Positions 456-62,429 of a stretch of 64,000 nucleotides of DNA are shown here, one piece after another; the first letter of the stretch is position 1, and every line of letters starts with the position of its first letter. Below the pieces are notes generated by a model, which ran no database searches, was not told the origin of the DNA, and saw only the letters and a list, made by a program, of their open reading frames with translations. This DNA is from an uncultured bacterium (lineage in GTDB: Bacteria > Patescibacteriota > Minisyncoccia > UBA6257 > 2-01-FULL-56-20): the NCBI GenBank assembly GCA_963696395.1, contig CAVOJZ010000002.1, positions 559,317 to 623,316 of the forward strand. The letters run 5' to 3'. The position numbers were made by a program, and so were the translations under genes.

Positions 456-558
456 GCAAAAGAATTCTTTGTGAGGGTACGCGTCGCGGTCTGCTGACCG
501 CGCGCTCCATCTCGCCGCCTTCGCGGCTCCGATAGCCCCTCACAAAGAATTCTCTTGC
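456..558. repeat. Family A hairpin element copy A1: 22-bp outer stem enclosing conserved core
   Basis: gcaaaagaattctttgtgaggg pairs with ccctcacaaagaattctcttgc; core ...gcgcggtc-tgct-gaccgcgc...ctcgccgccttcgcggctccgatagc shared with copies at 38040, 39328, 39596. Confidence 0.7.
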
Positions 559-586
559 TGTAGGTGTGGTTTGCTACTATATAGAT

Positions 587-5951: not shown

Positions 5952-6839
5952 ATGAAACCACTTGCAGAACGAACGCCGGATCCGCAATATCAGAATTTGC
6001 TGCGCAAAATTTTTGAAGAGGGTACCGAGGTTCTGCCGATCCACGGAGAGAAAGCACGTATGCTTGTGGGCCAGCAATTGCGTTACAAAATGGAGAACGG
6101 TTTTCCCGTGATCACCGAGCGCGATCTTTCCGGTTCGTTTTTAAAAGGCGCACTTGCTGAGCACATTGCGTTTTTGCATGGCGCCCGGACACAGGCGCAG
6201 CTCGAAGCTTTTGGTTGCAAATGGTGGAGCAAGTGGGTCACAAAGGAGAAATGTGATATCTTCGGATTGCCGGAAGGAGATCTCGGAGACGGATCATACG
6301 GTGCCGCATGGGCGAGCTTTCCCACGAAAGAAGGTGAGCCGTTCAACCAGATCAAGCATCTCGTCCAGCAAATAAAGGAGCGGCCTTATCTTCGCACGCA
6401 TTTCCTTTCGCCATGGATTCCGCAATACACGCTTCAGCATGAGGGTCTCACGCGGAAGGTGGTTGTTGCGCCATGCCATGGATGGATCCACGTGCTGTGT
6501 TTCCCTGAAACGAAGGAGCTCGTCATCCACCACTTCCAGCGGAGCGCTGATTTTCCCGTTGGCGTACCATTCAACATCATCCAATATGCGGCGTTCGGGC
6601 TGATGCTTGGACAGGAGATCGGTTACTCGCTTCGCGAGGTTGTCTACACTTTTTCAGACGTTCATATTTACGAAAGCCAGTACGAGAAGGTAAAAGAACT
6701 TTTGATGCGTGAGCCCCGGCGTCTTGGCACCGTCACGCTCGACCCTTCCATAAAAAGCATTTTTGATTTCCGACCGGAACATTTTACACTCACGGATTAC
6801 GAGCCGCATCCGAAAATGCTGATTCCGACACCGGTATAG
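5952..6839 (+). CDS. thyA: thymidylate synthase (ThyA type)
   Basis: Catalytic PCHGW motif, FPVG..PFNI region, length 295 aa. Confidence 0.9.
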   Translation: MKPLAERTPDPQYQNLLRKIFEEGTEVLPIHGEKARMLVGQQLRYKMENGFPVITERDLSGSFLKGALAEHIAFLHGARTQAQLEAFGCKWWSKWVTKEKCDIFGLPEGDLGDGSYGAAWASFPTKEGEPFNQIKHLVQQIKERPYLRTHFLSPWIPQYTLQHEGLTRKVVVAPCHGWIHVLCFPETKELVIHHFQRSADFPVGVPFNIIQYAAFGLMLGQEIGYSLREVVYTFSDVHIYESQYEKVKELLMREPRRLGTVTLDPSIKSIFDFRPEHFTLTDYEPHPKMLIPTPV

Positions 6840-7308: not shown

Positions 7309-8154
7309 CTATTTCACCATTACAATTCTCACTCCGAACATTTTTAGAACATCTTCTGCGTCGAGCATGGAATATCCCTTTGCGTAATAAACTTCTTTGA
7401 TCCCGGCGACGGCGACTGACTTTGCACATGTTGGGCAGGGAAATGTGCTTACAAAGAGCGATGCTCCTTCGAGCGGGATTCCTTTCTTGGCAGCAAGCGC
7501 AATGAGTTGGGCTTCAGCGTGAATGAATTTGCCGAGATCTTTATATTGTGCGTCGCCCGCATCAAAGTTGCTGCGTGGGTCACCGAAAATGTTTGGCGTC
7601 TGGTCTGCGGGTAGAGGATTATTGTGCGCCAGAAGCACCGCGCGTTTATCGCGAATCAGGATTGCGCCAACCTGTCGCCACCAATCGGGACTTTTTTTTG
7701 CTTCTGCCAGTGCGTCCGCCATCACGGCCCTGTCGAATGCTTCCTCCGATATTATTCGGTCGGGCGCAACCTCGAATTCGGTAGTGGAAATCTGCCGGTT
7801 CCAGCGAAGGAAGACCGGAACAAACTCTATGTGTATCCCGCCAAGATGATTTTCGGCGAACACGCGGTTTGCTTCATCGTCCGGCGCATAGAGAGCGACC
7901 GCCGAGAGACCGCTTTTAAACTCGTCAAGATTTTTTTTATCTAAAATTACTACTTTTTGAAAAATCCCGAGACCCTCAATAAGAAGTTTTACTTCCTCCG
8001 GCGTAAGCGCACGAATATCGCGCTCGAGGCGGGGTGCTTCCTTAGTGAAGTCACTTCCGAGAATATAAAGAGAGCCGCCCAAAGCATACTTTTTAAAAAA
8101 ATCGATGTAGCCTCGGTGCAATGCGGGGATATAGGAGATGATGGCGTTTTCCAT
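7309..8154 (-). CDS. dCMP/cytidine-deaminase-domain protein with ~140-aa N-terminal extension
   Basis: Zinc-deaminase motifs HAEAQLI and PCPTCAKS in C-terminal half; N-terminal half has no recognisable motif. Confidence 0.7.
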   Translation of the reverse strand: MENAIISYIPALHRGYIDFFKKYALGGSLYILGSDFTKEAPRLERDIRALTPEEVKLLIEGLGIFQKVVILDKKNLDEFKSGLSAVALYAPDDEANRVFAENHLGGIHIEFVPVFLRWNRQISTTEFEVAPDRIISEEAFDRAVMADALAEAKKSPDWWRQVGAILIRDKRAVLLAHNNPLPADQTPNIFGDPRSNFDAGDAQYKDLGKFIHAEAQLIALAAKKGIPLEGASLFVSTFPCPTCAKSVAVAGIKEVYYAKGYSMLDAEDVLKMFGVRIVMVK

Positions 8155-24074: not shown

Positions 24075-26057
24075 CTAATTGTTGTCTTCGATGTCGAGCG
24101 CGTTCGTTCGATCACCGAAATAGATCGTTTTGCCATTCGGAGAAACTCCTCGCCCGAGTGGCAACTTGGTTGAGCTCACGTTGAGCGTCGTTTTTGTTCC
24201 GGTCGTCGTGAGGACATCAACTCCCGTGGGGACCGCTTGCGCGGAAGAGGCAAACGTGATTTCAAACGTGTTCGCCGCCTCATTCGCAATGACCCCGTTC
24301 GGGAAGCCGTCCAGCGATACCGGTTGGCCGATGAGTTGCATCGAGCCAATATTGAAGAGGAATGCCTGTTTGCCGAGCGGGTCCAACAAGACGCCAACTC
24401 CGGAGCTCAATAACTTTATCTGAGCGAGCGTGCTTCCGGATCCGGACTGGGTAAGCCCGGGAACGCTCAGTGGTTTTCCTAACGATGTTAAGTCAGGAAT
24501 GCTGAGGCCCTGCAGCGTGTTCGTGCCGCAATTTAGGATGACGGCGTAGAGCGCGCTTCCGCTCTGGACCGCGTCAAGCGAGCACGGATCATTGAGGCTC
24601 GTGTAGGAGAAGTAATTATCGAATAGCGGATCGGTTAGAATGTTTGCGCCGACCAGCGTATTGACCGTCGGTTGGAGAGCCATGAAATAGCCCCCAGCCG
24701 CGGCAATCTCCCACCCGCTTTGTCCGTTCATATTGCCACCGCCAACACCGTTTCCGTTTAGGTCGGTGACAGAAATGCCTTCCTGCCCCCGTTCCACAAA
24801 GCCCAGATCGCCCGACGTTTGATCAAGCGCCATGACCTTTGCGATTCCCTTGCCGGCGCCGGCTTGCCAACTCGACAGAAGATTTCCGCTGGCATCAAAG
24901 TGATAAGCAATTCGTCCGCCCTGAGGTCCGTAGACAACAAGGAGGATCACGTCACCATTCTTCCCGTAAACCGCCATGGTGTTTTGATTGCCCATCATGG
25001 CGCCTGTGTAAGGATCGGAAATTGTTTGCTGGCTCTGTGTGCACGCTTGGAAAACGAACGTGCCAGGGTTGTATGTGTTTTGGTCAAAGTCCATCCCCCC
25101 GAATATTTCGGTTGGACTTTCGTATTCCCAGCCCATCAACGCCGGAAGTGGCGTGACAGACACGTTGTTCGTGCACCCCGAACTGAAGTTTGTCCCATTC
25201 AGGGTCGGGTTTATTGAGCCCTCGCAATAATAATCGTCGTTGCATCCAAAGATGAGCGGCGAAATAGACGTGATGGTTGATTGCTGGGACGCCGCCGTCA
25301 CGGTGATCTGAACCGACTTGGTTCCGCTGTTGCCTCCGGAGCCAGTGCATGGCCCAAGAGTATACGTTGCGGTGCCAACGGTCTGCGGTGTCACAGTTGT
25401 CCCGCTTGAGTTTGCCGCGACAGATCCGGACCAATCCGTTTCTGCCGGACTCGCCGAAGCTGTGCACGGATCGCTACCGCTCGTGTTTTGTGTGCCCCAC
25501 GAAAGCTGTAACGATGTTCCCACAACGACGGTTGATACCGACGCTGCGAACGACGTGATGCTTGCGGGTTGCGGGGCCGCCGTCACGGTGATCTGAACCG
25601 ACTTGGTTCCGCTGTTGCCTCCGGAGCCAGTGCATGGCCCAAGAGTATACGTTGCGGTGCCAACGGTCTGCGGTGTCACAGTTGTCCCGCTTGAGTTTGC
25701 CGCGACAGATCCGGACCAATCCGTTTCTGCCGGACTCGCCGAAGCTGTGCACGGATCGCTACCGCTCGTGTTTTGTGTGCCCCACGAAAGCTGTAACGAT
25801 GTTCCCACAACGACGGTTGATACCGACGCTGCGAACGACGTGATGCTTGCGGGTTGCGGGGCGACATCGCCTCCTCCATTACCACCTCCGCAGGAACTGA
25901 GAATCAACGAGGCTCCCAAAATTCCCGCCACCAGAAGAACAAAAAACGACTTGTTTTTGCTCATATCCTCTCTCCTATTTCGTAAATTGTGAATCGTGGC
26001 AGGATTTTGAACCAGCCAACTGGCTACACTATACTGCTTATCCCGCTGTTTTGTCAA
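24075..26057 (-). CDS. large secreted protein with tandemly duplicated Ig-like domain
   Basis: Signal peptide; 95-aa module APQPASITSFAAS...SVQITVTA present twice identically. Confidence 0.75.
   Translation of the reverse strand: MTKQRDKQYSVASWLVQNPATIHNLRNRREDMSKNKSFFVLLVAGILGASLILSSCGGGNGGGDVAPQPASITSFAASVSTVVVGTSLQLSWGTQNTSGSDPCTASASPAETDWSGSVAANSSGTTVTPQTVGTATYTLGPCTGSGGNSGTKSVQITVTAAPQPASITSFAASVSTVVVGTSLQLSWGTQNTSGSDPCTASASPAETDWSGSVAANSSGTTVTPQTVGTATYTLGPCTGSGGNSGTKSVQITVTAASQQSTITSISPLIFGCNDDYYCEGSINPTLNGTNFSSGCTNNVSVTPLPALMGWEYESPTEIFGGMDFDQNTYNPGTFVFQACTQSQQTISDPYTGAMMGNQNTMAVYGKNGDVILLVVYGPQGGRIAYHFDASGNLLSSWQAGAGKGIAKVMALDQTSGDLGFVERGQEGISVTDLNGNGVGGGNMNGQSGWEIAAAGGYFMALQPTVNTLVGANILTDPLFDNYFSYTSLNDPCSLDAVQSGSALYAVILNCGTNTLQGLSIPDLTSLGKPLSVPGLTQSGSGSTLAQIKLLSSGVGVLLDPLGKQAFLFNIGSMQLIGQPVSLDGFPNGVIANEAANTFEITFASSAQAVPTGVDVLTTTGTKTTLNVSSTKLPLGRGVSPNGKTIYFGDRTNALDIEDNN
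25291..25860. repeat. perfect 285-bp tandem duplication (2 copies) inside CDS 24075..26057
   Basis: Six-frame track shows pairs of ORFs offset by exactly 285 nt with identical translations; nucleotide lines 25291-25575 and 25576-25860 identical. Confidence 0.85.
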
Positions 26058-35879: not shown

Positions 35880-37277
35880 CTATAGCCCACGGACGGCCAA
35901 GGCGAACTGGTCGCCTCGATCGTATTCGTTCTTGAAAATGCCGAAGCTGGTCGCGCCCGGGGAGAGGAGAATGATGTCGCCTGGTTGTGCGGCTGCGAGC
36001 GCCGCCGCGAACGCATCTTTCATATTCAAGACGATCGTTGCGTTATAATCGGGCGGCAGAACCTTCAATAATTTATCGGTTGCTTTGCCCTTAAAGAGGA
36101 TGAGGTGTTTTACGGTTTTCGGGATGTAGTCGGCGAGCGCTTCGAAGGGGAGTTCTTTGTCGCTGCCGCCGGCGATGAGAGCGATCGGTTTATTTTGAGG
36201 GACGAGCGCCGCTAACGCCGCGATGGTTGCTTCGGGCGTTGTTGAATTCGAATCGTTATAGAAGGCGATGCCTTTTTTCTCTCCCAGATATTCCAAGCGC
36301 CCGGGAAGACCATTAAATTTTTCTAAAACAGTTTTTGCTATTTCATCCGGGATTCCAAGCGCCCGCGCTACGGCAACTGCATAGGCTGCGTTGGTGCGAT
36401 TATGTTTGCCGACGAGCGCAATGTTCCAGGTTTTGGGTATTGTTGCATCGGTTATGCATGTTCCTTTGAGACTGCCGAACTGAGCCTCGACACTCTTTTT
36501 TATTTCTGATGTTGTGATAAATATGTCGCCCTTTTTCTGAAAGCGGGCGATGGCTGCTTTGTCACGAAAGTAACGTTCCATATCTCCCTTGTAGTAGTTC
36601 ATGTGGTCGGGCATAAAGTTCGTCCAGACCGCAATGTGCGGGCTTATTGACGCTTCTTCGAATCCCTGGAGCTGCCACGAGTCGAGTTCTAGGATCACGA
36701 GGTCTCCCGGCGCAACGCCTCGAAGGAGATTGAGCGTTGCAACGTCGCGTTCATTTCCGCCAAGACCCGGGTTTTTTCCGGCGGCTTTCGCAATTTCATA
36801 AATAAGATGCGTTGTGGTTGATTTGCCACGCGTGCCCGTAATTCCCACCACCGTCGCTCCGGAAAGTTTTGCAAAAAGCGAGGCGTCCATCGCAACCGGA
36901 ATGCCAAGTTCCCGTGCGTGAGCAAGGTAGGGCGAATCAAGCGGCGCATTCGGTGCGCGAATGATAAGGTCGCGCCCTTCAAAGTCCTCCATGGTGTGCC
37001 CTCCGAGATGATAGGTTATAGTTGGAAATCTTTCGAGCCTGGCGAGTGAGGGTGCGAGTTCATCTTTTGTTTTCAAATCGGTCACGATGAGCTCGGCTCC
37101 CGCTTCCGCAAAAAATTCCGCGTCGCCGACGCCTCGCCCGAGCAGGCCGAGCCCCATCAGCGTTATTTTTTTCCCTGCAAACTGTGCTTTTATGTCGGAC
37201 GATTCCATTGCTTTGATAATTGCACTAATTGCGAGCTTTGACAATTCATTAAAAAAATCGCTATAATTCTTTGACAT
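35880..37277 (-). CDS. murD: Mur ligase family protein, MurD-like
   Basis: ATP-binding P-loop GITGTRGKSTTT, Mur ligase middle/C-terminal pattern, 465 aa. Confidence 0.7.
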   Translation of the reverse strand: MSKNYSDFFNELSKLAISAIIKAMESSDIKAQFAGKKITLMGLGLLGRGVGDAEFFAEAGAELIVTDLKTKDELAPSLARLERFPTITYHLGGHTMEDFEGRDLIIRAPNAPLDSPYLAHARELGIPVAMDASLFAKLSGATVVGITGTRGKSTTTHLIYEIAKAAGKNPGLGGNERDVATLNLLRGVAPGDLVILELDSWQLQGFEEASISPHIAVWTNFMPDHMNYYKGDMERYFRDKAAIARFQKKGDIFITTSEIKKSVEAQFGSLKGTCITDATIPKTWNIALVGKHNRTNAAYAVAVARALGIPDEIAKTVLEKFNGLPGRLEYLGEKKGIAFYNDSNSTTPEATIAALAALVPQNKPIALIAGGSDKELPFEALADYIPKTVKHLILFKGKATDKLLKVLPPDYNATIVLNMKDAFAAALAAAQPGDIILLSPGATSFGIFKNEYDRGDQFALAVRGL

Positions 37278-37283
37278 TCATCG

Positions 37284-37406
37284 CGGGAGGGTTGGGAAAG
37301 GTTTTCCGGGGAGCCCCATAAGCTCCCGAAGCAGGTCCGAGTCCTGCCCCCGCAACACGCAAGGTTTGAGTATCGAGTAAGACCGGGAGGCTTTTGTCGC
37401 ACACCC
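37284..37406. repeat. Family B-related element, short variant X
   Basis: Shares gtccgag(t)cctgcccccgcaacacgcaagg...agcaagacc...ttttgtcgcacaccc with 38260-38349 and the first part with 39571-39595. Confidence 0.6.
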
Positions 37407-37455
37407 GAGAGGTTTCGCTTTGGTAGCATCGATTTGAATAAGCTAAGATTAAAGG

Positions 37456-37830
37456 ATGCAACATCCTCAAAAGCCTACGAAAGACGAGCAAATTCTCTCG
37501 CTCATTTCGCATCAAGCGCGAGAGCTGGTTGAAAAATACACTTCACCCGAACAGTTGAACGTAGGTTCTTATAAAGAAATATTCAACGTTTCGAAAAGTG
37601 ACATTGCAATGTATCTTAAAAAGCATTTTGCGCTAACGGATTTAGTCCCAAGCCCTGAATCTAAGAAAGATGGTTTCTATGCAATCTCCATCGAAGGAGG
37701 GTTCCGTATCTATGAGCAATATGACGGCATTCGCGCGAATGAGAAAACGACATCGAATTCCGATGGTGTTTGGGATGCATTTGCAGAATACATTATTAGA
37801 ACGAGTGGAACCGGACTGTCCTTTAAGTAG
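37456..37830 (+). CDS. hypothetical protein
   Basis: 124-aa ORF inside repeat island; no motif. Confidence 0.4.
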   Translation: MQHPQKPTKDEQILSLISHQARELVEKYTSPEQLNVGSYKEIFNVSKSDIAMYLKKHFALTDLVPSPESKKDGFYAISIEGGFRIYEQYDGIRANEKTTSNSDGVWDAFAEYIIRTSGTGLSFK

Positions 37831-38013
37831 AATCTATCAATACGATATTCCGGTCTCAAAAGCAGCTTTTCAAAAACATCGCAACGGCTTGCCCAAAAGA
37901 GGTTCGCCCTTTGGAACGAAGTAAAGGCAAGTTTCAGGAAAACAAACTGACCGAGACGCCTCAAGTGAGACAGGGAGAGGATTTTCGAGAAGACCTTGTA
38001 AGGGCCTCTTAAT

Positions 38014-38349
38014 AAAAGTCCCAGACCGAGTGCGGCAACAGCTTTCGTTTTTCTCTCTGGGAGGGTCGCGTCGTTTTCTGCTGAAAACGCGCTACCTCTC
38101 GCCGCCTTCGCGGTTCCGAGATACCCTCTCGGAGAGAAAAACGAAAGCTACTGGACAAGACTCGGACGGGGAGGGGGTCGGGGAACCGGGAGGTTCCCCG
38201 CGTAGGAAGGCGCTGGAAACCGAGAGGTTTCCAGGGAGCGAAGCGCGTTGCGCGCGGAGCGACGTCCGAGCTTCCTGCCCCCGCAACACGCAAGGCCAAG
38301 TTCAGAGCAAGACCAAGTAGGCCTCAAGGCATGATTTTGTCGCACACCC
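38014..38349. repeat. Composite repeat copy Y: 5' arm + inserted A2 + family B structured element + tail
   Basis: aaaagtcccagaccgagtgcggcaaca / A2 / gactcggacggggagggggtcggggaaccgggaggttcccc...ggaaaccgagaggtttcc...gtccgagcttcctgcccccgcaacacgcaagg; near-identical to 39298-39595. Confidence 0.7.
38040..38150. repeat. Family A hairpin element copy A2
   Basis: Outer stem gctttcgtttttctctctgggaggg / ccctctcggagagaaaaacgaaagc; core tcgcgtcgttttctgctgaaaacgcgctacctctcgccgccttcgcggttccgagatac. Confidence 0.7.
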
Positions 38350-38699
38350 AGGACTAGATGATCTTGCTATCACATGCAAAGAGGACATGAAAGACAAAGT
38401 GTTGGCTGTCATCAAGCAGTATTCCCCGATTTATATTCCCCAGGTTCAGCCGATCCATAAGTCGTGGCTGTAGCACTTTCGTTTATCTCTGACCTTCGAA
38501 TGCATCCAATGATCAAGCGCAACCGCAATTCAGAAAAGAGGATACAACAGACGGAAGAAGTTATAGTTCGTATAGATGAAGGAGGAAATGCCTATTGCAT
38601 AGAACTAATCTTTGATCACAGGGGATTGATGTCAAAATTAAAAGCCATGGAAACTACAGATACTACTTTGGAAGAAGCGCAAGGATAGAACTCACCCCC

Positions 38700-39224
38700 A
38701 TGCACGCAAAAATGATTTTTATTATTGTAATTATCGCCATTGTCATTGCCCTCATCGCCGGATTCTTGTGGTATCGAAGTGGGATTCACCAGGCGGAAGA
38801 CGACTTTTTGTATGCTAACAAATCCTCTGGAACGCTTAAGTCGTCTTTCAATTGCAGCACCATCCCCGAGATAACTTTCGAGTATCCTCTTTTCAAAGGC
38901 CTTGATAAACCATACCTTATCTATTCGGATAATGAGTGTTTGATAACGTTGAATCGAATTCCGAATGACAGGCCTAATGGAGCAGTCATAACTGTCACGA
39001 AACTGCCAACGGAAGCAACGCCAAGTCCAACGTCACAGCTGATCCCAAAAAATAATTACGGCGTTCAATATCAAGAACTATCTGGCGTTGATGGCTATCT
39101 TTTTTACACCAGCTTGCAAGGATATTATTATCGGGTTGCATTTTCGAATTATTCCAATGTCTCAATTGACCATGATTTGTTTTGGAATACTATTCTTGAT
39201 AGTTTTCGGGAGGTAAAATCGTGA
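38700..39224 (+). CDS. hypothetical membrane-anchored/secreted protein
   Basis: N-terminal TM MIFIIVIIAIVIALIAGFLWY, 174 aa, between the two composite repeat copies. Confidence 0.5.
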   Translation: MHAKMIFIIVIIAIVIALIAGFLWYRSGIHQAEDDFLYANKSSGTLKSSFNCSTIPEITFEYPLFKGLDKPYLIYSDNECLITLNRIPNDRPNGAVITVTKLPTEATPSPTSQLIPKNNYGVQYQELSGVDGYLFYTSLQGYYYRVAFSNYSNVSIDHDLFWNTILDSFREVKS

Positions 39225-39297
39225 TTCGTATCAAGACCGAGACGCTTCGAAAGTAAGCGGAAGGGGATCCCCAAGAATGCTTGTGGGGTTTGCACCC

Positions 39298-39595
39298 AAA
39301 AAGTCCAAGACCGAGTGCGGCAACACTGGCAGTAAGCAGTCCAAAAGAATTTTGAGTACGCGTCCGCGCGTACTCGCGCGGCGCTCCATCTCGGCCGCCT
39401 TCGCGGCCTCCGATAGCCCCAAAATTCTTTTGGACTGCTTACTGCCCAATTGTTATGAGATCGCAAGACTCGGACGGGGAGGGGGTCGGGGAACCGGGAG
39501 GTTCCCCGCGTAGGAAGGCGCTGGAAACCGAGAGGTTTCCAGAGAGCGAAGCGCGTTGCGCGCTGAGCGACGTCCGAGCTTCCTGCCCCCGCAAC
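39298..39595. repeat. Composite repeat copy Z: 5' arm + inserted A3 + family B element (tail truncated by A4)
   Basis: Same order as copy Y; B sequence 39467-39595 differs from 38159-38287 at only a few positions. Confidence 0.7.
39328..39446. repeat. Family A hairpin element copy A3 (26-bp perfect outer stem)
   Basis: ggcagtaagcagtccaaaagaatttt ... aaaattcttttggactgcttactgcc; core tacgcgtccgcgcgtactcgcgcggcgctccatctcggccgccttcgcggcctccgatagc. Confidence 0.75.
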
Positions 39596-39700
39596 CACTT
39601 TTGCTTTTTCTCTTTCTGAGGGTCGCGTCGTTTTCTGCTGAAAACGCGCTACCTCTCGCCGCCTTCGCGGCTCCGAGATACCCTCAGAAAGAGCAAAAGC
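39596..39700. repeat. Family A hairpin element copy A4
   Basis: Outer stem cttttgctttttctctttctgaggg / ccctcagaaagagcaaaagc; core nearly identical to A2. Confidence 0.7.
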
Positions 39701-39789
39701 CTCCGATCAATCGCAGTGTTTCTTGCCCTTTTGATAAGCGGCTTTTAGTTGAAAATACGGACAGGGTGCGATATATTGTGAATGCAATT

Positions 39790-39862
39790 GCCGACGTAGC
39801 TCAGGGGTTAGAGCGGGCGTTTCATAAGCGCTAGGTCGGAGGTTCGACTCCTCCCGTCGGCA
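39790..39862 (+). tRNA. tRNA-Met (CAU; elongator or Ile-lysidine type), no encoded CCA
   Basis: Acceptor gccgacg/cgtcggc (G1-C72, so not initiator), anticodon loop ttCATaa, T-arm ggagg-ttcgact-cctcc. Confidence 0.75.
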
Positions 39863-39887
39863 CATCCGGTAATGCTATAATCATGGA

Positions 39888-48508: not shown

Positions 48509-49559
48509 AAGTTGAGGAGGAGATGCGCAAGCAAGCTTGCGTATCTCCGACGAAACGAGGGATGAAAAGCTTCTTAGCTTTACAGCCCGAAGTTACCAAG
48601 GTATTTAAACCTTTTTTGGGGAAAAACTCAACTGCCCGGGAAGCTATTGACACTATTTTTCAGGTGAGTATACTTACTCCTAAGATACGAATGTTCAAGA
48701 ACGTAAATCTTTCACCAACCACCGGCTAGCCCCGCAATTTTAGATTGTGAAGCAGCCGCCGTGCGCGGCTGATTTTATTCTTGGGTATGTCGTGTCGAAC
48801 GTTTTTTACCAATATTCGTTCGACTACTTGAGCGAACTTCCGAATTGTAGAGTCGGAAGATTCATATGAAGCTCCGCGCCATCTTATGTCCGACTGTGCC
48901 TACAAGCACGGGCGGGCAGAGGCCTACGTAACGCATTTCTAGGCCTCCAATTTCTCTTGGCAGGCGGAGCATGTTCTTAAATAGAACAAAAAAGTCAGCA
49001 TTGGGATGGTTGGCACATAAGGGCGAATGGTGGATGCCTAGACTAGAAAAGGCGATGAAGGACGTGGCGTAGCAACGATATGCCTCGGGGAGGTGCGTAG
49101 CAACCTGTGATCCGGGGATTTCCGAATGGGGAAACCTAGTTGAGTAAACCTCAATTGCGTGGAGCAATCCACGAGCGTACCCGGCGAAGTAAAACATTTC
49201 AGTAGCCGGAGGAAAAAAGAACAAGCAGTTTATTCCCTGAGTATCGGCGAGAGAAAAGGGAAGAGCCCAGACTAAGGTTGTGATTTATCACAGCCTTGGA
49301 GTTATAAGTGTTGAACGCTCTCCTTCGCGAATAATAAAGGGCGCAGTAATGTGCTCTCTATTATTTGCGAGCGGAGGTGGAGGAGTTAAAAAATCATTGG
49401 TTAGCCGAAATCAGCTGGAAAGCTGATACCAGAGAGGGTGATAGTCCCCTAGGCGAAAACTTTTGGTCTCCTTAGTTTATCTACTTGAGTACTTCGAAGT
49501 AAAACAGTTTCGAAGGAATTAGCCAGTACTATCTGGCAAGGCTAAATACTTTTCTAGAT

Positions 49560-49596
<37 letters not shown>

Positions 49597-51020
49597 CAGG
49601 CCGGTGAGGCCGTTGAAATAGAACCTGAAACCATTTGTCTACAAGGAATTGAAGCACGAACGGCTGGGGAGCAATCCTCGGACGAGTGCGACAATGTGCC
49701 TATTGAAGAATGATCCAACGACTTATTTTTGTGTCGCTTGTCTAAACGCGCATAGCGTGTAGGCGCAGCGAAAGCGAGTCTTAATAGGGCGAAATTAAGG
49801 CGGCACAGTATAGACCCGAAGCGTGATGAGCTTACCTTGGCCAGGGTGAACTCTCGAGAAATCGAGAGGGAGGCCCGAACCGGTTGATTGTTCAAAATCT
49901 TCGGATGAGCTGAGGTAAGGAGTGAAAAGCTAATCGAATTACGTAATAGCTGGTTCTCTCCGAAATAGTTTTAGGACTAGCGGCGAATGTTCCCCGTGGG
50001 GGTAGAGCACTGGATGATCTGTAATGGTCGAAAGACCGCCAGATCAATCAAACTCCGAATACCGCGGGTTAAAAGTTCGCTAGTTAGACTGTGGGGGCTA
50101 AGCTCCATGGTCGCGAGGGGAAGAGCCCAGATCGTCATCTAAGGTCCCGAAGTCCATGCTCAGTGTGAAAGGTAGTCATCACCCATAGACAGATAGGAGG
50201 TTGGCTTAGAGGTAGCCATCCTTTAAAGAGTGTGTAACAACTCACTATTCGACGGGTGGTGGCGCCGAAAATGTACCGGGGCTCAAGCATGGCACCGAAG
50301 ATACGAATTTACATGTCCCTCGGGACGTGTATCTGGTAGGAGAGCATTCCGGCCTGCAGTGAAGGTCAACCCGCGAGGGTGACTGGAGCGGCCGGAAGAG
50401 AAAATGTTGGAATGAGTAACCACAATCCCAATGAGAAATTGGAACCCCGAAAATCTGAGGTTTCCGTGGCACTGGCAATCAACCACGGGTTAGGCGGTCC
50501 TAAGGCAATCCCGAAAGGGGCAGTCGATGGAAAGCTGGTTAATATTCCAGCCCTCCTATGTGTTTATCCTGCGCGTGCAAGGGAAATAATCATGTATGTC
50601 TTATTGGTTTGGTATCGCTGCGGACAAGTTCAAGCGGTCCGCGGCGGAAGGTGAGGAATTTACCTCATCGACACATGAGAAGAGCCCTTCGAGAAAAGCG
50701 CGTTTGTTATGACACGTGGGATCCGTACCGTAAACCGACACTGGTGGATAGGGCGAGTAGCCCAAGGGGAACGAGTGATTTGCCTCTAAGGAACTAGGCA
50801 AAAAAGCGGCCGTAAGTTCGCAATAAGGCCTGCCCTCCGCAAGGAGGGCCGCAGCTAAAGTATCTCTGGCGACTGTTTACCAAAAACACAGCTCCCTGCT
50901 AACTCGCAAGAGGATGTATAGGGGGTGACGCCTGACCGATGCGAGAAGGTCAAGGTTGGGGGTGGCGTAGCAATACGTTGCTCACTGACTCAAGCCCTCG
51001 TCAATGTCAGCGATAACTAT

Positions 51021-51766
51021 GAAATACGATTGTAGTTATAAAATTTGGCTATATGCTGGAATACCTGAGTATCCGACATTACCGTTGGTGCAAAAATAAA
51101 TTAAAAAATCATTAAAACTGATTTTGGAATTTACTTTTTGTTTGCTACGGTGAAAATATGATCGGTGCAGACAATCAGCAGGAAAGGCTTTGGTCGCAAA
51201 AATGGCTTAACGATATTCCAGAAAATATCGGTTGGTATCTTTCGGGCTTCGTAGACGGAGAAGGGAGCTTTAACGCTTCGCTTCGGAAGGGAAATGGGCA
51301 TCGCCTCGGATGGCAGGTGCAGTTAACTTTTAATGTAGCCCAGCGAGATATTACTGATTTGGAATTATTGAAGCGTCATTTTGCATGTGGACGATTACAA
51401 AATCGAAAGGACGGAGTTCGTTATTTCGTCGTTTGTGATTATCGTTCCATTATCAATCGGGTTATACCATTCTTTGAGAAATTTCCTTTCTATTCTGTTT
51501 CAAAACAGAAAAACTTCTTTCTTTTCAAACAAATCGCACTTCTGATGGGCCAGGGCAAACACCTTGATCCAGAAGGATTCCGCGAGATTGTTTCTATAAG
51601 AGAAAGATTAAACGAAGGGAAAGGACGAAGAAGAAAATATAACGAGAGCGATATGATTAAAGAATCCTCAGAGACTACACGCCAAACTTCGCGTATCGCG
51701 AAGATGATATAGTCCGAACTGCATGGCGACATGCAGAGTTGCTCTCTCACGAGCAGAATAACAGAT
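51021..51766 (+). mobile_element. group I intron 1a in 23S at the E. coli 1917-equivalent site, carrying a LAGLIDADG ORF
   Basis: 5' exon ends ...gataactaT; P7 R element cagagactacacg (about 51678) and S aagatgatatagtcc (about 51703); ends in G before exon aatcgttctaaggt. Confidence 0.6.
51158..51712 (+). CDS. single-motif LAGLIDADG homing endonuclease (intron-encoded)
   Basis: YLSGFVDGEGSF dodecapeptide near N-terminus, 184 aa, inside 23S intron. Confidence 0.75.
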   Translation: MIGADNQQERLWSQKWLNDIPENIGWYLSGFVDGEGSFNASLRKGNGHRLGWQVQLTFNVAQRDITDLELLKRHFACGRLQNRKDGVRYFVVCDYRSIINRVIPFFEKFPFYSVSKQKNFFLFKQIALLMGQGKHLDPEGFREIVSIRERLNEGKGRRRKYNESDMIKESSETTRQTSRIAKMI

Positions 51767-51780
51767 GAATCGTTCTAAGG

Positions 51781-52018
51781 TGGAATTGAAACTGCCTTAG
51801 TAAAACCTAACTATATGCTGGAACACCCGCGCATATCAGAGTACCGCAAGGTAACAATCTCTGATCGAAGCGGACAATCAGCAGGAAACTTCTTCGGAAG
51901 GATCCTCAGAGACTACACGTTAGGATCGCCGGGTGGCGATAAGATATAGTCCGAACTGCATAGCGATATGCAGAGCCAAGCAGAAATGTTTTGGCCAACA
52001 TAGGTTGTAACATGTTTG
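51781..52018 (+). mobile_element. group I intron 1b (ORF-less, ~238 nt) in 23S at the E. coli 1931-equivalent site
   Basis: Q caatcagcagg (about 51872), R cagagactacacg (about 51908), S aagatatagtcc (about 51938); joined exons give aactat-aatcgttctaaggt-agcgcaattcc, matching E. coli aactataacggtcctaaggtagcgaaattcc. Confidence 0.55.
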
Positions 52019-52716
52019 AGCGCAATTCCTTTTCGGGTAAGTTCCGAAGCGCACGAAAGGCGTAACGACCGGAGAACTGTCTCAGAGGCAAGCTCGGTGA
52101 AAATGCGATTCCCGTGAAGACGCGGGATACCTGCAGCGGGACGAAAAGACCCCGGAAGCTTTACTGCAGCTTGGTATTGATTTTAGAGTTCTACTACGTA
52201 GCGTAGTGGTGAGGATTTGAAGCACAGCTCTCGGGTTGTGTGGATCCGACAATGAAACAGCCATTTTTAGAACTTTAACGTCTAACCGGTTGGGGACCTT
52301 ACAAGGAAACCCAACTGAGACAGTGCTTGGTAGGCAGTTTAAATGGGGCGTTTTCCTCCAAAAGAGTAACGGAGGAGTTTATTAAGGTCAGCTTAGCCCG
52401 GATGGAAATCGGGCAGGACGTGCAAACGCAAAAGCTGGCTTGACTGCGAGACCTACAAGTCGAGCAGGTGCGAAAGCAGAAGTTAGTGACCCGACGGCTA
52501 TGTTCATGTAATTTATTATATGAATTCTTAATAGGAAGGCCGGAGACACCGGATAAAAGCTACTCCGGGGATAACAGGCTAGTATTGTCCGAGCGTCCCT
52601 AGCGACGACAATGCTCGGCACCTCGATGTCGGCTCGCCACAGCGCGGGGGTGGAGAAGCTCCCAAGCGTTTGGCTGTTCGCCAATTAAAGTGGCACGTGA
52701 GCTGGGTTCAGACCGT

Positions 52717-53425
52717 TGAATACAAGAACCCTTAACGACGAATCGAACACGGCGGCTATCTCGAGTAATCGAGATTGAAAAAATCGACTCATATCGGTGA
52801 AACCCTAGCGTTCATGACCTGTGAGCGTATCTAAATGTTTATTAAAAATAAATTAAAAACTATTTTGTATGAACAGGCGATCATAGGATAATACCGAGGG
52901 AAGTCGCATATGGAATTTTCGTCAACGCAAAAAGCATATCTTGCAGGTTTTCTTGATGGTGATGGCAGCATCTATGTACGATTGAAACCAAATAGCGATT
53001 ATCGTTATGGGTTTCAGGTCGCACCGTGTGTTGCATTTTTTCAATCATCAAAAGACCGCAAGAGCTTTGAAGAGATCTGCAATCTCATTGGTAACGGATA
53101 TCTGCGGGAAAGAAACGATGGCATGTTGGAGTATGTTATGCAGAAACAACAGGCGATCTACTCTTTTCTTTTGGACATACGGCCATTTCTTATTCTTAAG
53201 AAACGGCAAGCCGATTTGATGCTCGTGATTTTGGAAAAGAAAATGCTCGTAAAATCTAAAGAAGATTTTATAGCGTTGATGGAGTTAATCGATCAATTCC
53301 GAGAATTAAATTATTCGAAGAAACGAAAGATTCATATGTTGACCCTCTAGAGACTACACGTCGATCTCCTCGAAAGAGGATGGTGGTATAGTCCGGCACT
53401 CCTGGTAACAGGAGAATACAGTATG
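52717..53425 (+). mobile_element. group I intron 2 in 23S at the E. coli 2593-equivalent site (I-CreI site), carrying an I-CreI-like ORF
   Basis: Exon junction ttcagaccgT | ... G | cgtgagacaggtcgg reconstitutes ...accgtcgtgagacag (E. coli gaacgtcgtgagacag); P7 R/S elements agagactacacg / tatagtcc at about 53350/53390. Confidence 0.7.
52910..53350 (+). CDS. I-CreI-family LAGLIDADG homing endonuclease (intron-encoded)
   Basis: YLAGFLDGDGSIY motif; overall similarity to I-CreI (FLxxxxPFLxLKxxQAxLxLxIxE; DQxxxLNxSKxRK) at the homologous rDNA site. Confidence 0.8.
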   Translation: MEFSSTQKAYLAGFLDGDGSIYVRLKPNSDYRYGFQVAPCVAFFQSSKDRKSFEEICNLIGNGYLRERNDGMLEYVMQKQQAIYSFLLDIRPFLILKKRQADLMLVILEKKMLVKSKEDFIALMELIDQFRELNYSKKRKIHMLTL

Positions 53426-53913
53426 CGTGAGACAGGTCGGTCTCTATCTGCTGCAGGCGTTTATTACTTGAGGGGAGTTGGCCTTAGTAAGAAATTGCTA
53501 CTTTCTGGAGTAATCCAGATTGCCAACTCGGCTAATAACGGTGAAACCCTAATTCTTGCTTCATCGCGATTAATATTTCATTAAAAATTTATTAATCGTA
53601 GATTGAAATGCAGTCCTCTTTCCCTATCATTGAAATATGATACAAGAGCAGGGCAATACCGTGGGAAGTCGATCTAATAATTTTAGGTTTGACCCCGTAA
53701 CGACTTGTGTCCTCGGCTTTGCGCCGAGTGACCGGATAGCGGTCTTTGAATCGCTATAACATGCCGACGCCCGACTTCGCACACGCGAAAGGGCGAAGAT
53801 ATAGTCTGAGCACGTAGTAATACGTGAGTGCTTGACGAGAGGACTGGGCTGAACATACCTCTGGTCTATCGGCTTTGCCACCAGGTGAATTGCCGAGTAG
53901 CTATGTATGGAAG

Positions 53914-60400: not shown

Positions 60401-62429
60401 CACCAATACCTGGTCTCTCTATTATCAACCCGCTCCATATCCATATGCTTTAACTGCTCAAGGCCTTCCGAATGATCCAACGCTCATTGCGACCACATCA
60501 CCTGCGAACGGGGGATCGATTGTTCAATTTCCGCAAGGAAATAACTTCATCGCCGGCACTCCGGTGACGCTCACCGCTAACGCCTCGTCCGGTTACTCGT
60601 TTGTCGGTTGGACTGGAAGCGTGTCGACCACCACGAATCCTCTCACCGTCACCGTGAACAGCAACATGACGCTGACGGCAAATTTCAGTTCAGCAGCTTC
60701 TCCGCCCACCATCTCCTCCTTCTCTGCATCTCCCTCCGAAGTCCTCTCTGCCGGAACCAGCACTCTTTCCTGGAATGTCTCGAATGCCTCGTCGGTTGCC
60801 ATCACCCCCGGTAGTTTTTCGACCTCCACCCTCATCGGCTCCGTCACCGTGAACCCCACCTCGACCACGACCTACACCCTCACGGCAACGAATGGCAATG
60901 GTACGTCAACCGCAACCACGTCGGTTACGATTGATACCACGCCTCCATCAACCCCGACCTCTGTTGTTGCGACCGCCACCGGCTCTTCCACGATCACCCT
61001 CACCTGGGCCACGAGCACGGATGCGGGAGGTCCGGGTCTCTCGGGATACAACATCTTCCGCTGTCAGGGATCCTGCACCCCGAGTAACCGCATTTCGACC
61101 TCTTCCTCTCCCTTCTACCACGACACGTCTCTTACCTCAGGCACCCCATATACGTATTCCGTCTCCGCCTTCGATACCCTCGGATTGATATCGGCCACCT
61201 CATCCAATATCTCGACCACCACCTGGTCCGTCCCCGGAGTCCCCGGCTCCGTTTCCGCCTCCGCCGGCAATGCCCAGGCAACCGTCTCCTTCTCGGCTCC
61301 CACCTCAACCGGGGGAACGAGCATCCTCTACTACCGGGCCACCAGTAATCCGGGTAATACCTCCGCCACCTCAAGCGCAAGCCCGATTGTGGTTGCGAAT
61401 CTCACGAACGGACAAAGCTACACCTTTACCGTCACCGCAACGAATGCCGTCGGGACGAGTGCCTCCTCCTCGGTCTCGGGGAGCGTGACCCCCACGGGTG
61501 CCGCCCCCTCGATTGGATCCTTCTCTGCCGCCCCCCAGTATACAGAGCCAAGCGTCACCTCAACCCTCTCCTGGAGTGTGAGTAACGCCTCTTCCGTCTC
61601 CATCTCCCCGGGAGGATTCAGCACAAGCACCCTCATCGGCTCATTCTCTGTCGCTCCCACCTCCACCACGACCTACACCCTCACGGCAGAATCCAATGGC
61701 AATGGCACCTCAACCGCCCAGACCACCGTCACCGTGCAAAGCATCCCTCCGAGTATCCCCACGAATCTCTCGGCAGATCCCGTATCCACCTCAGAAATTG
61801 ATCTTTCGTGGACGGCAAGCACAAGCACGATCCCCATATCCGGCTATGGCATCTTTCAAGACAGCGTGCAGATCGCAACGACCAGTGCTACCAGTTACCA
61901 GAATACCGGGCTCAATCAGGACAGCCTCTACGCATATACCGTGGATGCCTTTGACGCCGCAGGGAATGTCTCCGGACAGAGTTCATCCACCTCTGCCACT
62001 ACCCAATCACAGCAATCCGGCGGTGGCGGCGGCGGCGGAGGTGGAGGCGGCGGCTACTATATCCCTCCCGCATCAACCTCAACCACAACCGGCACGGGGA
62101 CCGGAACCAGCGGCAACTCCGCACTTCTCCAAACCCTCCTTACCGAACTCCTCTCCCTCGTGAAGCAGCTGAATACCCAGCTTGTCGCAACCTTTACGAG
62201 AAATCTCACCGTGGGGTCACGGGGGACGGATGTCCAAAACCTCCAGGTCTTCCTGAATGACAACGGCTACCCGATATCCGAGACGGGAGCAGGATCTCTC
62301 GGACACGAATCAACCTACTTTGGCGCCAAGACGGCACAGGCCCTGGCCAAGTGGCAGAAGGCAAACGGGATCAAGGGGACCGGATTCTTCGGACCGGCAA
62401 CGAGGGCATTTATGGAGGGGAAGTGGTAG
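57456..62429 (+). CDS. giant (1657 aa) surface protein: signal peptide, beta-helix-like region, repeated Ig/FN3 modules, 12-Gly linker, C-terminal peptidoglycan-binding domain
   Basis: FN3 signatures (TWASSTD..GYNVFRC; LSWTASTST..SGYGIFQ); internal ~170-aa repeats; GGGGGGGGGGGG at 62019-62054; C-terminal TRNLTVGSRGTDVQNLQVFLNDNGY...AKTAQALAKWQKANGI (PG_binding_1-like). Confidence 0.8.
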   Translation: MIGTSFMVDRNSYKRPFFILLAIGLAVFLTQAAAVRAATNHDGYCNAAGGPSSCMFNNTATNDLKLVLGTCVNSGCTAPVSIPGGWTAIASGTNATDGSWALGCNVSANASDTSSGSWTVPGNSVYLEGESFAGTTVGTTANCNTTGVGGIAEAGNNSSTYIFPGVALKRTDGSSWISALTFDNTTAAACTPTGLTAYSATGNGTIQDTPGGVSSWATTTCTTFTGYWNTVDAEILGFSSSSTPVINFFTASSAMVLTGGTSTLSWNVINASSVTITPGGYTTSTLVGSTSTPALSTTTIFTLSAANANGTTTATTSVSIDITAPSTPTSVVATPTSISNLTLTWASSTDVGGPGIGGYNVFRCQGSCTPAVRIGTTSNATYNDSGLASSTMYTYAVQAYDTLGLVSATSSPVSVTMPTSTPVIQAATCNQSDVNAVINGPTHTAADGDVIQIPAGSCTWTSGITVPSGIGISIIGTGTPNSGSSTTGAAASCASTSITVSNGITAFRMTPSYGNSAARISCMTINSGSGSGIAASVLGTCSSSGCPSMRMDNVTFSNWAGHVEVGISYGINAIGDVFGVFDHDTINGSTGNYLQLVEQSNASYLGVGYYGDNSWAQPEAYGSANFLYFENNIFNDSGISDNEGSAGGLQNQGGGREIGRFNQFNITDTYNSTLGWHGTESSGRPRSGRAYEFYGNTANCNSSSTGCPPFIGVRGGTGLVWGNTFSASTGSSYNDVVQMNTNRSFGNPGNIWGACDGSAPFDTDDGVTYWSGTIASYSTSSNSATITVSGSNPGWSTNQWVPAGAPYSVHDITQGSGSELIGNGSTTLTITQLGGPAQYSPTSGDSIQILRATACIDQGGGRGAGFLYSGDTPQSTPANEAVEPTYLWMNSTNPNPNSGMAYSNSARVIQDRDYYTENYNQTAQSNATSPFNGTTAIGVGHGTLANRPTTCTPNLLGGGAPGVAYFATDADSGNGALYTCDATNTWSLYYQPAPYPYALTAQGLPNDPTLIATTSPANGGSIVQFPQGNNFIAGTPVTLTANASSGYSFVGWTGSVSTTTNPLTVTVNSNMTLTANFSSAASPPTISSFSASPSEVLSAGTSTLSWNVSNASSVAITPGSFSTSTLIGSVTVNPTSTTTYTLTATNGNGTSTATTSVTIDTTPPSTPTSVVATATGSSTITLTWATSTDAGGPGLSGYNIFRCQGSCTPSNRISTSSSPFYHDTSLTSGTPYTYSVSAFDTLGLISATSSNISTTTWSVPGVPGSVSASAGNAQATVSFSAPTSTGGTSILYYRATSNPGNTSATSSASPIVVANLTNGQSYTFTVTATNAVGTSASSSVSGSVTPTGAAPSIGSFSAAPQYTEPSVTSTLSWSVSNASSVSISPGGFSTSTLIGSFSVAPTSTTTYTLTAESNGNGTSTAQTTVTVQSIPPSIPTNLSADPVSTSEIDLSWTASTSTIPISGYGIFQDSVQIATTSATSYQNTGLNQDSLYAYTVDAFDAAGNVSGQSSSTSATTQSQQSGGGGGGGGGGGGYYIPPASTSTTTGTGTGTSGNSALLQTLLTELLSLVKQLNTQLVATFTRNLTVGSRGTDVQNLQVFLNDNGYPISETGAGSLGHESTYFGAKTAQALAKWQKANGIKGTGFFGPATRAFMEGKW

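Follow-up and report, generated by a model that had tools for sequence, protein, structure and literature searches.

Genomic islands and prophages that move by tyrosine integrases target the 3' ends of tRNA and transfer-messenger RNA (tmRNA) genes through attL/attR repeats of the tRNA 3' end, with an identity that extends from the T-loop as far as the last bases of the gene; insertion rebuilds the gene and leaves a partial copy of it on the far side of the insert. In the attC sites of integrons and the attP hairpin of CTX-phi, on which XerCD acts, the sequence of the stem varies and its structure is kept, and integration leaves the order target copy, cargo, inverted arm, loop and target-fused arm. 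The bridge RNA of IS110, the omega-RNAs of TnpB and IscB, and the exon- and intron-binding sequences (EBS/IBS) of group II introns join a scaffold to variable segments that match a target. Miniature inverted-repeat transposable elements, or MITEs, together with repetitive extragenic palindromic (REP)-type repeats are short, non-coding, multi-copy, intergenic and hairpin-forming, MITEs having conserved terminal inverted repeats and short target duplications of fixed length. Here we describe a structured element that recalls each of these systems in part, present in two copies in a 64,000-nt stretch of contig CAVOJZ010000002.1 from an uncultured member of the candidate phyla radiation (CPR)/Patescibacteria. 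That whole stretch is called the window; coordinates are positions in it, and L-numbers denote loci retrieved from other genomes and metagenomes.

The element belongs to an apparently undescribed, widespread non-coding family of CPR/Patescibacteria, the core of which is a three-way-junction fold of ~70-110 nt. The arms that close this fold are dictated by the gene beside which each copy lies, an arrangement suggesting that the element may act as a module for insertion at gene ends.

A conserved three-way-junction core

A sequence-only reading of the window had described a closed domain of several hairpins, and the coordinates and sequences it gave for this domain are all correct. The 5' gaCTCGGAC does pair with the 3' GTCCGAGc, forming a closing stem (P1) that is followed inward by a junction strand (J1), hairpin 1, a second strand (J2), hairpin 2 and a variable hairpin 3 (Table 1). 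The second copy (39464-39595) was rightly called near-identical to the first, with 98% identity over 132 nt and one G-to-A and one G-to-T position as the sole differences. A covariance model of the core from J1 through hairpin 2 (R1) finds, within the window, exactly these two copies, which score 80 and 79 bits. Folded as a single sequence, copy 1 beats shuffled sequences modestly (z about -2.9), and the main support for the fold is comparative.

A metagenome scan with a pattern for hairpin 1, GGTCGGGGAANCNNNNGNTTCCCCG, yielded at least 120 matching stretches, and among the matches listed R1 aligns ~100 full-length cores from 100 sources, a number that includes arrays and extra copies. Members share J1 (GGGAAGGGGGUC, also given as NGAAGGGGGUC), hairpin 1, J2 (GUGGNGGAAG) and hairpin 2, which has the family form ..AAACC-loop-GGUUU.. 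and is followed by a short GGAG strand. An insert hairpin between J2 and hairpin 2 is optional; hairpin 3 is optional or variable, often a GCGAAGC mini-hairpin; and the smallest members are bare three-way junctions of ~75 nt. Median core identity between loci is 65%. Paired cells make up 91.8% of the R1 alignment, against 77.2% in shuffles, and its covariation score of 0.273 (0.071 in shuffles) was reached by none of 500 shuffles, while sliding the register drops pairing to 30-64%. All nine pairs of hairpin 2 have changed on both sides; hairpin 1 was fixed by the search pattern and thus contributes little information to the covariation test.

The core also contains a tertiary contact. The variable base N of GUGGNGG in J2 shows covariation with the final base in the loop of hairpin 2, as C-G 21 times, U-A 11 times and A-U twice in the model alignment, and in a hand tally as C with G (17 of 17) and U with A (12 of 12); N = A accompanies three-base loops or GAGA loops in hairpin 2. 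This contact takes the place of a pseudoknot that the sequence-only reading had proposed between the tail of the domain and GGGGAGGGGGTC. The latter is the near-invariant family strand GGGAAGGGGGUC, and the proposal fails because J1 is constant while the tail follows the neighbouring gene, the two showing no covariation. The GNRA tetraloops of the same reading are present in the window as GGGA and GAGA, but the hairpin 1 loop is not a conserved GNRA loop across the family: GGGA is common, and TGTA, TGCT, ACTT and ATAT are also seen.

In 56 of 64 copies the better fold is that of the + strand and not of the - strand, and G-U accounts for 12% of P1 pairs. Together with the tertiary pair and with the orientation and T-loop changes described below, these observations favour a fold that is single-stranded and probably RNA. 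A folded single-stranded DNA site may be the alternative, and d(GCGAAGC) mini-hairpins have very high stability in DNA. Compensatory changes hold the stems in more than 100 copies whose flanking genes are unrelated, showing that the domain does not code for protein and that, as had been proposed, it is a structure-constrained multi-hairpin domain and not an ordinary terminator. The possibility that the element has no function and is the decaying partial duplication of a tRNA-like gene decorated with chance hairpins would account for its 3' third, which copies the end of such a gene, and for its 5' strand ACGGGGAGGGGGUC, which loosely resembles that gene's 5' end GCGGGAGGGUU. This possibility is refuted by the conservation of the core, compensatory changes included, across at least 120 stretches that come from many samples and adjoin many different genes, and we give it next to no weight.

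No family in Rfam 15 matches the element. At the gathering score the whole window yields rRNA, tRNAs and one group I intron; the region 37150-39800, searched with E up to 10, gives no match to either long copy; and seven diverse member loci, searched with E up to 1, give none on the element. The signal recognition particle (SRP) RNA was considered for a resemblance to motifs of E. coli 4.5S RNA (CCCGCAAC, GAAGCAG) and rejected, since the motifs are not collinear and Rfam reports no SRP match, and tmRNA was discarded when ARAGORN called none in the window. A search of open-access literature text found no description, although an earlier one elsewhere is possible. Many contigs break at the element. 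Group I introns in the tRNA anticodon loops of Patescibacteria, the subject of PMC13011429, are unrelated to it.

A closing stem copied from the neighbouring gene

Most copies have a P1, and its sequence in one copy bears no relation to that in the next. The general layout is X - spacer/cargo - X' - core - X, where X is the terminal 20-45 nt of the host gene, mostly a tRNA or tmRNA 3' end that begins at the T-loop, and X' is an inverted copy of X that pairs with the second X to make P1. ARAGORN places about 50 of the 127 pattern matches listed 40-105 nt 3' of a same-strand tRNA of nearly any type, and one copy after a tmRNA, again on the same strand; at all loci listed it calls no opposite-strand tRNA upstream of the element. 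The order at the tRNA-adjacent copies is tRNA, terminator-like hairpin, 5' arm, core and 3' arm. In the 5' arm the adjacent tRNA's T-loop, T-stem 3' strand and acceptor 3' strand appear as their reverse complement, and the 3' arm is a direct copy of that stretch which extends to the discriminator base or CCA and sometimes reaches into the tRNA's downstream sequence.

Upstream direct repeats of at least 12 nt accompany 37 of 81 copies (shuffled maxima, 14-22 score units). The energy of P1 has a median of -21.2 kcal/mol with an element's own downstream region and -16.9 kcal/mol with those of other elements, a separation that is moderate because many arms share T-loop sequence; the direct repeats and the register read by eye are stronger evidence than this control. 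Many 3' arms, also read by eye, have independently exchanged the T-loop UUCG for UGAG, which places tandem G-A pairs by the junction. The target gene is intact at every copy, and by a crude gene call the element has the orientation of the upstream gene in 65 cases and the opposite one in 13.

The same rule holds at genes of other kinds. At L122 X is the last 13 codons and the stop of an L33-like gene, and at L040 it is the first ~14 codons of lepA in opposite orientation, with the real start and ribosome-binding site restored beside X'. At L052, L088, L132 and L064 X is the 3' end of an RNA-like gene without an Rfam family. The L019 locus carries cores at 5210-5278, 5978-6045 and 7905-7961 (- strand) of its own sequence, on the gene strand of a ribosomal-protein operon between L5 and S14, L18 and S5, and S5 and L15. 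In most bacteria the L30 gene, which is missing in CPR, occupies the S5/L15 gap.

Two targets drew separate observations. The upstream gene at L052, L088, L132 and L064 ends in a conserved GCGGAGGGCGGCGGCACUCAUAAAAGACUUUCACUUUGGAGCUCGCACCCGUCCUCCGCA and a terminator, and has an acceptor-like pairing GCGGAGG/CCUCCGC-A and a CUCAUAA loop; with no Rfam family at the gathering score, it may, judging from these motifs, be another non-canonical tRNA-like RNA. The target at L090 has a canonical T-arm and acceptor 3' end (GGTCGCCGGTTCAATTCCGGCCATCGGCTCA) where neither ARAGORN nor Rfam calls a tRNA or tmRNA, and may be an interrupted or unusual gene of one of these types.

Given this association, the element could be a structured RNA that serves the host and is linked to tRNA genes. 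Its extended helix would mimic stacked acceptor and T stems capped by the core, it would undergo tRNA-like 3' maturation, and its arms would track the neighbouring tRNA because function requires the match; it might act in processing or quality control, as a decoy for acceptor-end enzymes or toxins, or as the substrate of an enzyme that reads acceptor stems. In keeping with such a role, the tertiary covariation and strand bias are RNA-like, the orientation is always that of the upstream tRNA, and the 3' arms reach the discriminator or CCA, a few carrying CCA where the gene has CAA. The UUCG to UGAG changes depart from tRNA identity, which suggests selection on an RNA helix, and the element is widespread among housekeeping genes without associated mobility genes. 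However, protein-gene ends (L122, L040) and the ribosomal operon, where tRNA mimicry would be meaningless, show this layout too, and the element lies 3' of an intrinsic terminator, so that its expression would depend on read-through. Its presence is patchy among close relatives, and tandem arrays and cargo open reading frames (ORFs) are unexpected for a housekeeping RNA. We regard this explanation as unlikely, though worth serious attention.

A putative self-cleaving or self-splicing ribozyme of a new class (the sequence-only reading had called the architecture ribozyme-like) would use P1 as a substrate helix to cut itself out of read-through transcripts, or to process them, and leave the host product unharmed. 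Small ribozymes likewise have freely varying closing helices, and the compact three-way junction with its invariant purine-rich strands and tertiary contact, located inside transcription units, is consistent with catalysis. Removal between equivalent X positions would restore an intact gene, as is seen for the lepA frame in L040. Yet the gene is already intact without cleavage, the gene in L040 lies on the strand opposite to the better-folding one, there is no candidate cleavage site, and the ribozyme families of Rfam 15 gave no match; we consider this explanation quite improbable.

The sequence-only reading had also likened the domain to a riboswitch, that is, a cis-regulatory leader (or attenuator) for downstream ORFs. 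The fold is complex and conserved, both window copies precede small + strand ORFs, and an ABC transporter gene follows the copy in L012. The gene contexts nevertheless largely refute this role, which is very improbable: the genes downstream are unrelated across ~100 copies (27 of 92 downstream ORFs lie on the opposite strand by a crude gene call at the loci listed), a hairpin and a tRNA gene, and no ORF, come after copy 2 of the window, no expression platform is conserved, and the arms depend on the upstream gene, the end of which is the constant association.

The target in the window, a tRNA-like gene

The sequence-only reading had placed a short form of the domain at 37284. This is instead a separate tRNA-like gene, the 3' end of which the long form copies, as reflected in the motif TCCTGCCCCCGCAAC, which occurs exactly three times in the window (37342, 38273 and 39581). 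The gene starts 15 nt 3' of a promoter that drives it and probably also the whole + strand block (Table 1), and in L012 and L036 this gene again has an equivalent promoter ahead of it. It has a CCCAUAA anticodon loop (CAU) and a T-arm GCAGG-UCCGAGU-CCUGC. By hand one can draw its anticodon and T hairpins and an acceptor stem of 7 bp that contains two mismatches. Its D-arm and T-loop (UCCGAGU) are non-canonical. The hand-drawn cloverleaf has an energy of -27.3 kcal/mol, against -33.5 for the minimum free energy fold, an approximate comparison because the dot-bracket held an unintended pair. ARAGORN makes no call for 37282-37357, and the sole Rfam signal in the region is a sub-threshold match to the tRNA-Sec model (37283-37353, 29 bits, E = 0.005; cut-off 47 bits). 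A tRNA-Sec identity was rejected: the match reflects the long D-stem, and the gene has a CAU anticodon and lacks a long variable arm.

A search for relatives with GTCCGAG N0-3 TCCTGCCCCCGCAAC, using one genome per species, returned 13 loci from different Patescibacteria genome bins (Parcubacteria/Paceibacterota), all with a near-invariant gene of 74-76 nt in unrelated flanks; among them the anticodon stem shows one compensatory change, from G-C to A-U. Bacterial initiator tRNA is marked at its acceptor end by C1 x A72, G2-C71, C3-G70 and A73. All of these are present, with the anticodon CAU, in the window and in the 13 other genomes, and we take the acceptor ends to equal those of E. coli tRNA-fMet through six positions. 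The anticodon stem departs from the initiator type, being GGAGC/GCUCC or GAAGC/GCUUC without the run of three G-C pairs, and position 33 is C where initiator tRNAs have U. The gene is probably a derived initiator-type tRNA gene, and it may be the initiator tRNA of its Patescibacteria lineage; the analysis thereby brings to light a conserved, non-canonical gene of initiator type that standard tRNA finders miss.

Insertion and spread

In two of the loci related to the window, L012 and L036, core copies lie just 3' of the same tRNA-like gene, and L010 has 3' of it a looser variant resemblance that R1 does not detect; most relatives of the gene (L004-L016) are without the element. L036 carries, in order, the tRNA-like gene, a foreign long hairpin, X'-core-X and then the gene's native downstream sequence. 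Because the native sequence comes after X'-core-X, the unit lies between the 3' end of the gene and its native terminator, with an exact boundary that is ambiguous owing to the duplication. The native downstream stretch, D, is recognizable in the window, where it resembles the region 3' of the same gene in L004, L006, L013 and L036, and its terminal box TTTTGTCGCACACCC occurs twice (37392, 38335). Two copies in L056, by tRNA-Glu and an apparent tRNA-His, have an identical 90-nt core and differing arms, and copies in L087 share an idiosyncratic insert hairpin and again differ in their arms; in both cases the copies lie on one contig beside different tRNAs. Tandem arrays are common, with examples in L060, L019, L033, L121, L053 and L068, and the shortest inserts are about 200 nt.

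Given these observations, we give an even chance to the proposal that the element is a non-autonomous insertion module that duplicates the end of its target and acts as a single-stranded fold. It would be the right-hand module of a small insertion element widespread in CPR/Patescibacteria, and would carry, in X':X, a hairpin replica of its own attachment site. The fold, as transcript or single-stranded DNA, would be the recognition scaffold for a trans-acting factor encoded elsewhere in the genome, and P1, by matching the target, would set the entry and exit of the unit at the gene end and leave the gene unharmed. The layout of target copy, cargo, inverted arm, loop and target-fused arm would be the product of a folded-hairpin site recombining within its stem. 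The arms might originate by snap-back copying of a terminator hairpin, by template switching onto abundant RNA 3' ends or by gene conversion, none of which has support from a specific test.

Several points weigh against an insertion module. We know of no mechanism that gives both an inverted and a direct copy of a target, and any enzyme acting on the element is hypothetical: within 4 kb of ~115 loci there is no integrase, reverse transcriptase or recurrent protein. An old functional RNA that is inherited vertically could, through concerted evolution, give the appearance of recent spread, and the tertiary covariation is as much in keeping with a working cellular RNA as with a mobility scaffold. 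The copies in the ribosomal-protein operon of L019 have a weak or unclear P1. The core pattern has no match among the 2.9 million viral contigs of IMG/VR, and blastn found no match to the element in plasmid and phage collections. A search of the arms for untemplated CCA, as a sign of retro-origin, was essentially negative, with three or four weak cases, and no pair of empty and filled alleles with identical flanks was found.

In a related, more tentative possibility, the element would be a programmable mobile element, or a case of RNA-guided insertion, of a new kind: the X':X replica would pair with the identical chromosomal sequence and direct insertion of the unit, with any cargo, at the very ends of highly expressed genes, which the targets mostly are, and these genes would be left undamaged. 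The activity would come from recombination or repair in trans or from catalysis by the element itself, and the arms would be re-templated from each new target. Bridge RNAs and similar systems make programmability by pairing a natural idea by analogy.

Gene neighbourhoods offer no partner protein. Clustering 1,238 ORFs within 4 kb of ~115 loci, all against all, gave housekeeping families only, and the ORFs scanned between 34 and 41 kb of the window include no recombinase, the upstream neighbour being a Mur ligase gene. As a separate observation, a group I intron (82.7 bits) lies at 476-739 (+) of L020, ~150 nt from the element and on the strand opposite to the element and to tRNA-Arg.

Cargo and layout of the window block

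The features of the window are collected in Table 1. The block consists of the promoter, the tRNA-like gene ending in X, D (to 37406), a 124-aa ORF and a family A hairpin; then X'-core-X (38161-38288), a diverged D (to 38349), 74-aa and 174-aa ORFs and a family A variant; and finally X'-core-X (39469-39595), a family A hairpin, and a promoter with a canonical tRNA-Met gene. It looks like two cargo units stacked at a tRNA gene, each terminated by an element. Segments between X copies have a GC content of mostly 0.39-0.46, against about 0.47-0.57 in the flanking genes.

Table 1. Positions of the element, its target and adjoining features in the 64,000-nt window.
Feature	Position	Strand	Remarks
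Sigma-70-type promoter, TTGACA-18-TATAAT	37238-37267	+	12/12 matches
tRNA-like gene	37282-37357	+	CGCGGGA...CCCCGCA-A-CA; element target
First repeated unit, X (GTCCGAGTCCTGCCCCCGCAACA) and native downstream stretch D (ACGCAAGG...TTTTGTCGCACACCC)	37335-37406	+	
Cargo-like 124-aa ORF, low-GC segment	37456-37830	+	no Pfam family
Family A long hairpin, just 5' of copy 1	38040-38150	+	z = -10
P1 closing stem, copy 1	38161-38168 with 38263-38270	+	CTCGGACG pairs with CGTCCGAG
P1 5' strand (X'), CTCGGACG	38161-38168	+	antisense (reverse-complement) copy of the T-loop portion of the target gene's 3' end
Conserved core, copy 1	38167-38236	+	J1, hairpin 1, J2, hairpin 2; R1, 80.3 bits
J1 strand, copy 1, GGGGAGGGGGUC	within 38167-38236	+	
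Hairpin 1, copy 1, GGGGAACC-GGGA-GGTTCCCC	38180-38199	+	
J2 strand, copy 1, GCGUAGGAAGG		+	variable base N = A38204
Hairpin 2, copy 1, TGGAAACC-GAGA-GGTTTCCA	38214-38233	+	loop GAGA 38222-38225
Variable hairpin 3 region, AGCGAA GCGCG-TTG-CGCGC GGAGCGA	38237-38262	+	optional or replaced in other members
Hairpin 3, copy 1, GCGCG-TTG-CGCGC	38243-38255	+	
P1 3' strand and second X, CGTCCGAGCTTCCTGCCCCCGCAACA	38263-38288	+	direct copy of the tRNA-like gene's 3' end
Second, diverged copy of D, ending in TTTTGTCGCACACCC	38289-38349	+	
Second cargo-like segment, 74-aa and 174-aa ORFs	38464-39224	+	no Pfam family; GC 0.39-0.44
Family A-like variant hairpin, 5' of copy 2	39325-39445	+	
Element copy 2	39469-39595	+	P1 39469-39476 / 39571-39578; core 39475-39544, 79 bits
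X of copy 2, ending ...CCCCCGCAAC	last base 39595	+	no D copy after copy 2
Family A hairpin, directly 3' of copy 2	39597-39700	+	followed by promoter and canonical tRNA-Met (39790-39863)

The 124-aa ORF finds only itself and one homologue, 50% identical, among 5.8 billion proteins, and it was rejected as a marker of the element since this sole, distant homologue sits in a context without a core. That homologue is encoded on L137, a 1.7-kb contig with a terminal direct repeat (1-59, 1384-1440) that may be a circular molecule; a motif GTTAGCAGG..CCTGCAATTT is repeated ahead of small genes on it (121-146, 1264-1290).

Family A hairpins are built of a variable, perfectly paired outer stem of 20-27 bp and a conserved Y-shaped tip, CGCGUCG-hairpin-CGCGCG and GCCGCCUUCGCGGC, with z of -8 to -10. 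The family has no Rfam match and no copies in the other retrieved loci, and two matches to its motif in IMG/VR were set aside as chance occurrences in coding DNA. A further family A hairpin is located at 455-560, directly 3' of tRNA-Arg.

Other repeats were noted in the window. The 23S rRNA gene (49007-52792, a span of 3,786 nt) contains a group I intron at 51750-51973, and internal repeats near it (51039-53551) pair 51039 with 51801, 51159 with 51862, 51670 with 53349 and 52781 with 53525, which suggests more than one related insertion in or after the gene. A 285-nt unit is duplicated in perfect tandem at 25267-25836, with 97% identity. At 60646-61750 diverged repeats of ~126 nt with recurrent CCGTCACCGTG motifs, which give weak R1 matches on the - strand, are probably a repetitive coding region.

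Significance and comparison with known systems

Should the element prove mobile, it would be a cis module without a protein that encodes its target specificity in a hairpin replica of the target, and which inserts at gene ends with the gene restored, a logic unlike those of MITEs, integrons, tRNA-targeting islands and bridge-RNA systems. It would be relevant to programmable insertion and to how the tiny genomes of CPR put up with selfish DNA and let it spread. As a cellular RNA, it would represent a large, so far unrecognised family whose members accompany tRNA genes in a major radiation of bacteria. In both cases the covariance model and structural signature can be used for annotation, for which Patescibacteria assemblies offer hundreds of GC-rich intergenic blocks that lack an explanation, as well as contig breaks.

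Retrons and diversity-generating retroelements are not indicated, since no protein family, and so no reverse transcriptase, recurs near the copies; the latter would also need template and variable repeats that differ at adenines, and the two window copies differ only at a G-to-A and a G-to-T position. Introns of groups I and II can likewise be set aside: no intron model matches the element in Rfam searches of the window and seven loci, and the genes are complete without removal. Riboswitches would call for a consistent downstream gene class, and there is none among the loci listed.

The likeness to MITEs and REP-type repeats lies in size, copy number and setting. Conserved terminal inverted repeats and a short fixed target duplication are absent from the element: each copy has a terminal stem of its own that derives from the target, conservation lies in the interior, and the duplication, at 20-45 nt or more, is long and variable, with repeats of 12-33 nt or longer. 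The tRNA-like domain of tmRNA, the YrlA/Y RNAs and viral tRNA-like structures resemble it in that P1 is a continuous helix of acceptor and T-stem with a discriminator/CCA tail. Unlike these mimics, the element has its T-loop bases paired and no analogue of the D-arm or anticodon arm, and copies at other genes show no mimicry.

Like bridge RNAs, omega-RNAs and group II introns, the element combines a scaffold with variable segments matching a target. Its scaffold is unrelated to theirs (no Rfam match), there is no adjacent recombinase, nuclease or reverse transcriptase, and the two variable segments pair together in cis.

Integron attC sites and the CTX-phi attP hairpin share with it a stem that varies in sequence and keeps its structure, and the order of parts that they leave after integration. 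The window moreover resembles an attC array in having small same-strand ORFs that each end in a hairpin and a recombinase possibly encoded elsewhere. In contrast to attC, the P1 strands AAGACTCGGACG and CGTCCGAGCTT contain neither RYYYAAC nor GTTRRRY, and the stems of other copies are arbitrary. There is no IntI or attI: intI is absent from the ORFs scanned at 34-41 kb, and no recombinase recurs near ~115 copies. Furthermore, what would be the loop of such a site is here a conserved three-way junction with an RNA-like tertiary pair, and the stems copy many targets in place of one common core site.

With the islands and prophages of tRNA and tmRNA genes the element shares its preferred target and the span of identity with it, a reconstituted gene with a partial copy on the far side and, in the window, stacked units with cargo ORFs. 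Direct repeats of the tRNA 3' end flank the insert and the tRNA gene is intact, as in an island. In the inserts of the window no integrase is encoded (the 124-, 74- and 174-aa ORFs belong to no Pfam family), and units elsewhere, down to ~200 nt, have none in or near them. The element differs further in its inverted attachment copy and structured core beside one repeat, in its use of protein-gene ends, and in serving many targets per genome with one core type. It therefore belongs with neither integrons nor integrase islands, nor with MITEs, retrons, diversity-generating retroelements, introns or any Rfam family; in its manner of working, the element is most like an integrative module that bears its own attachment site.

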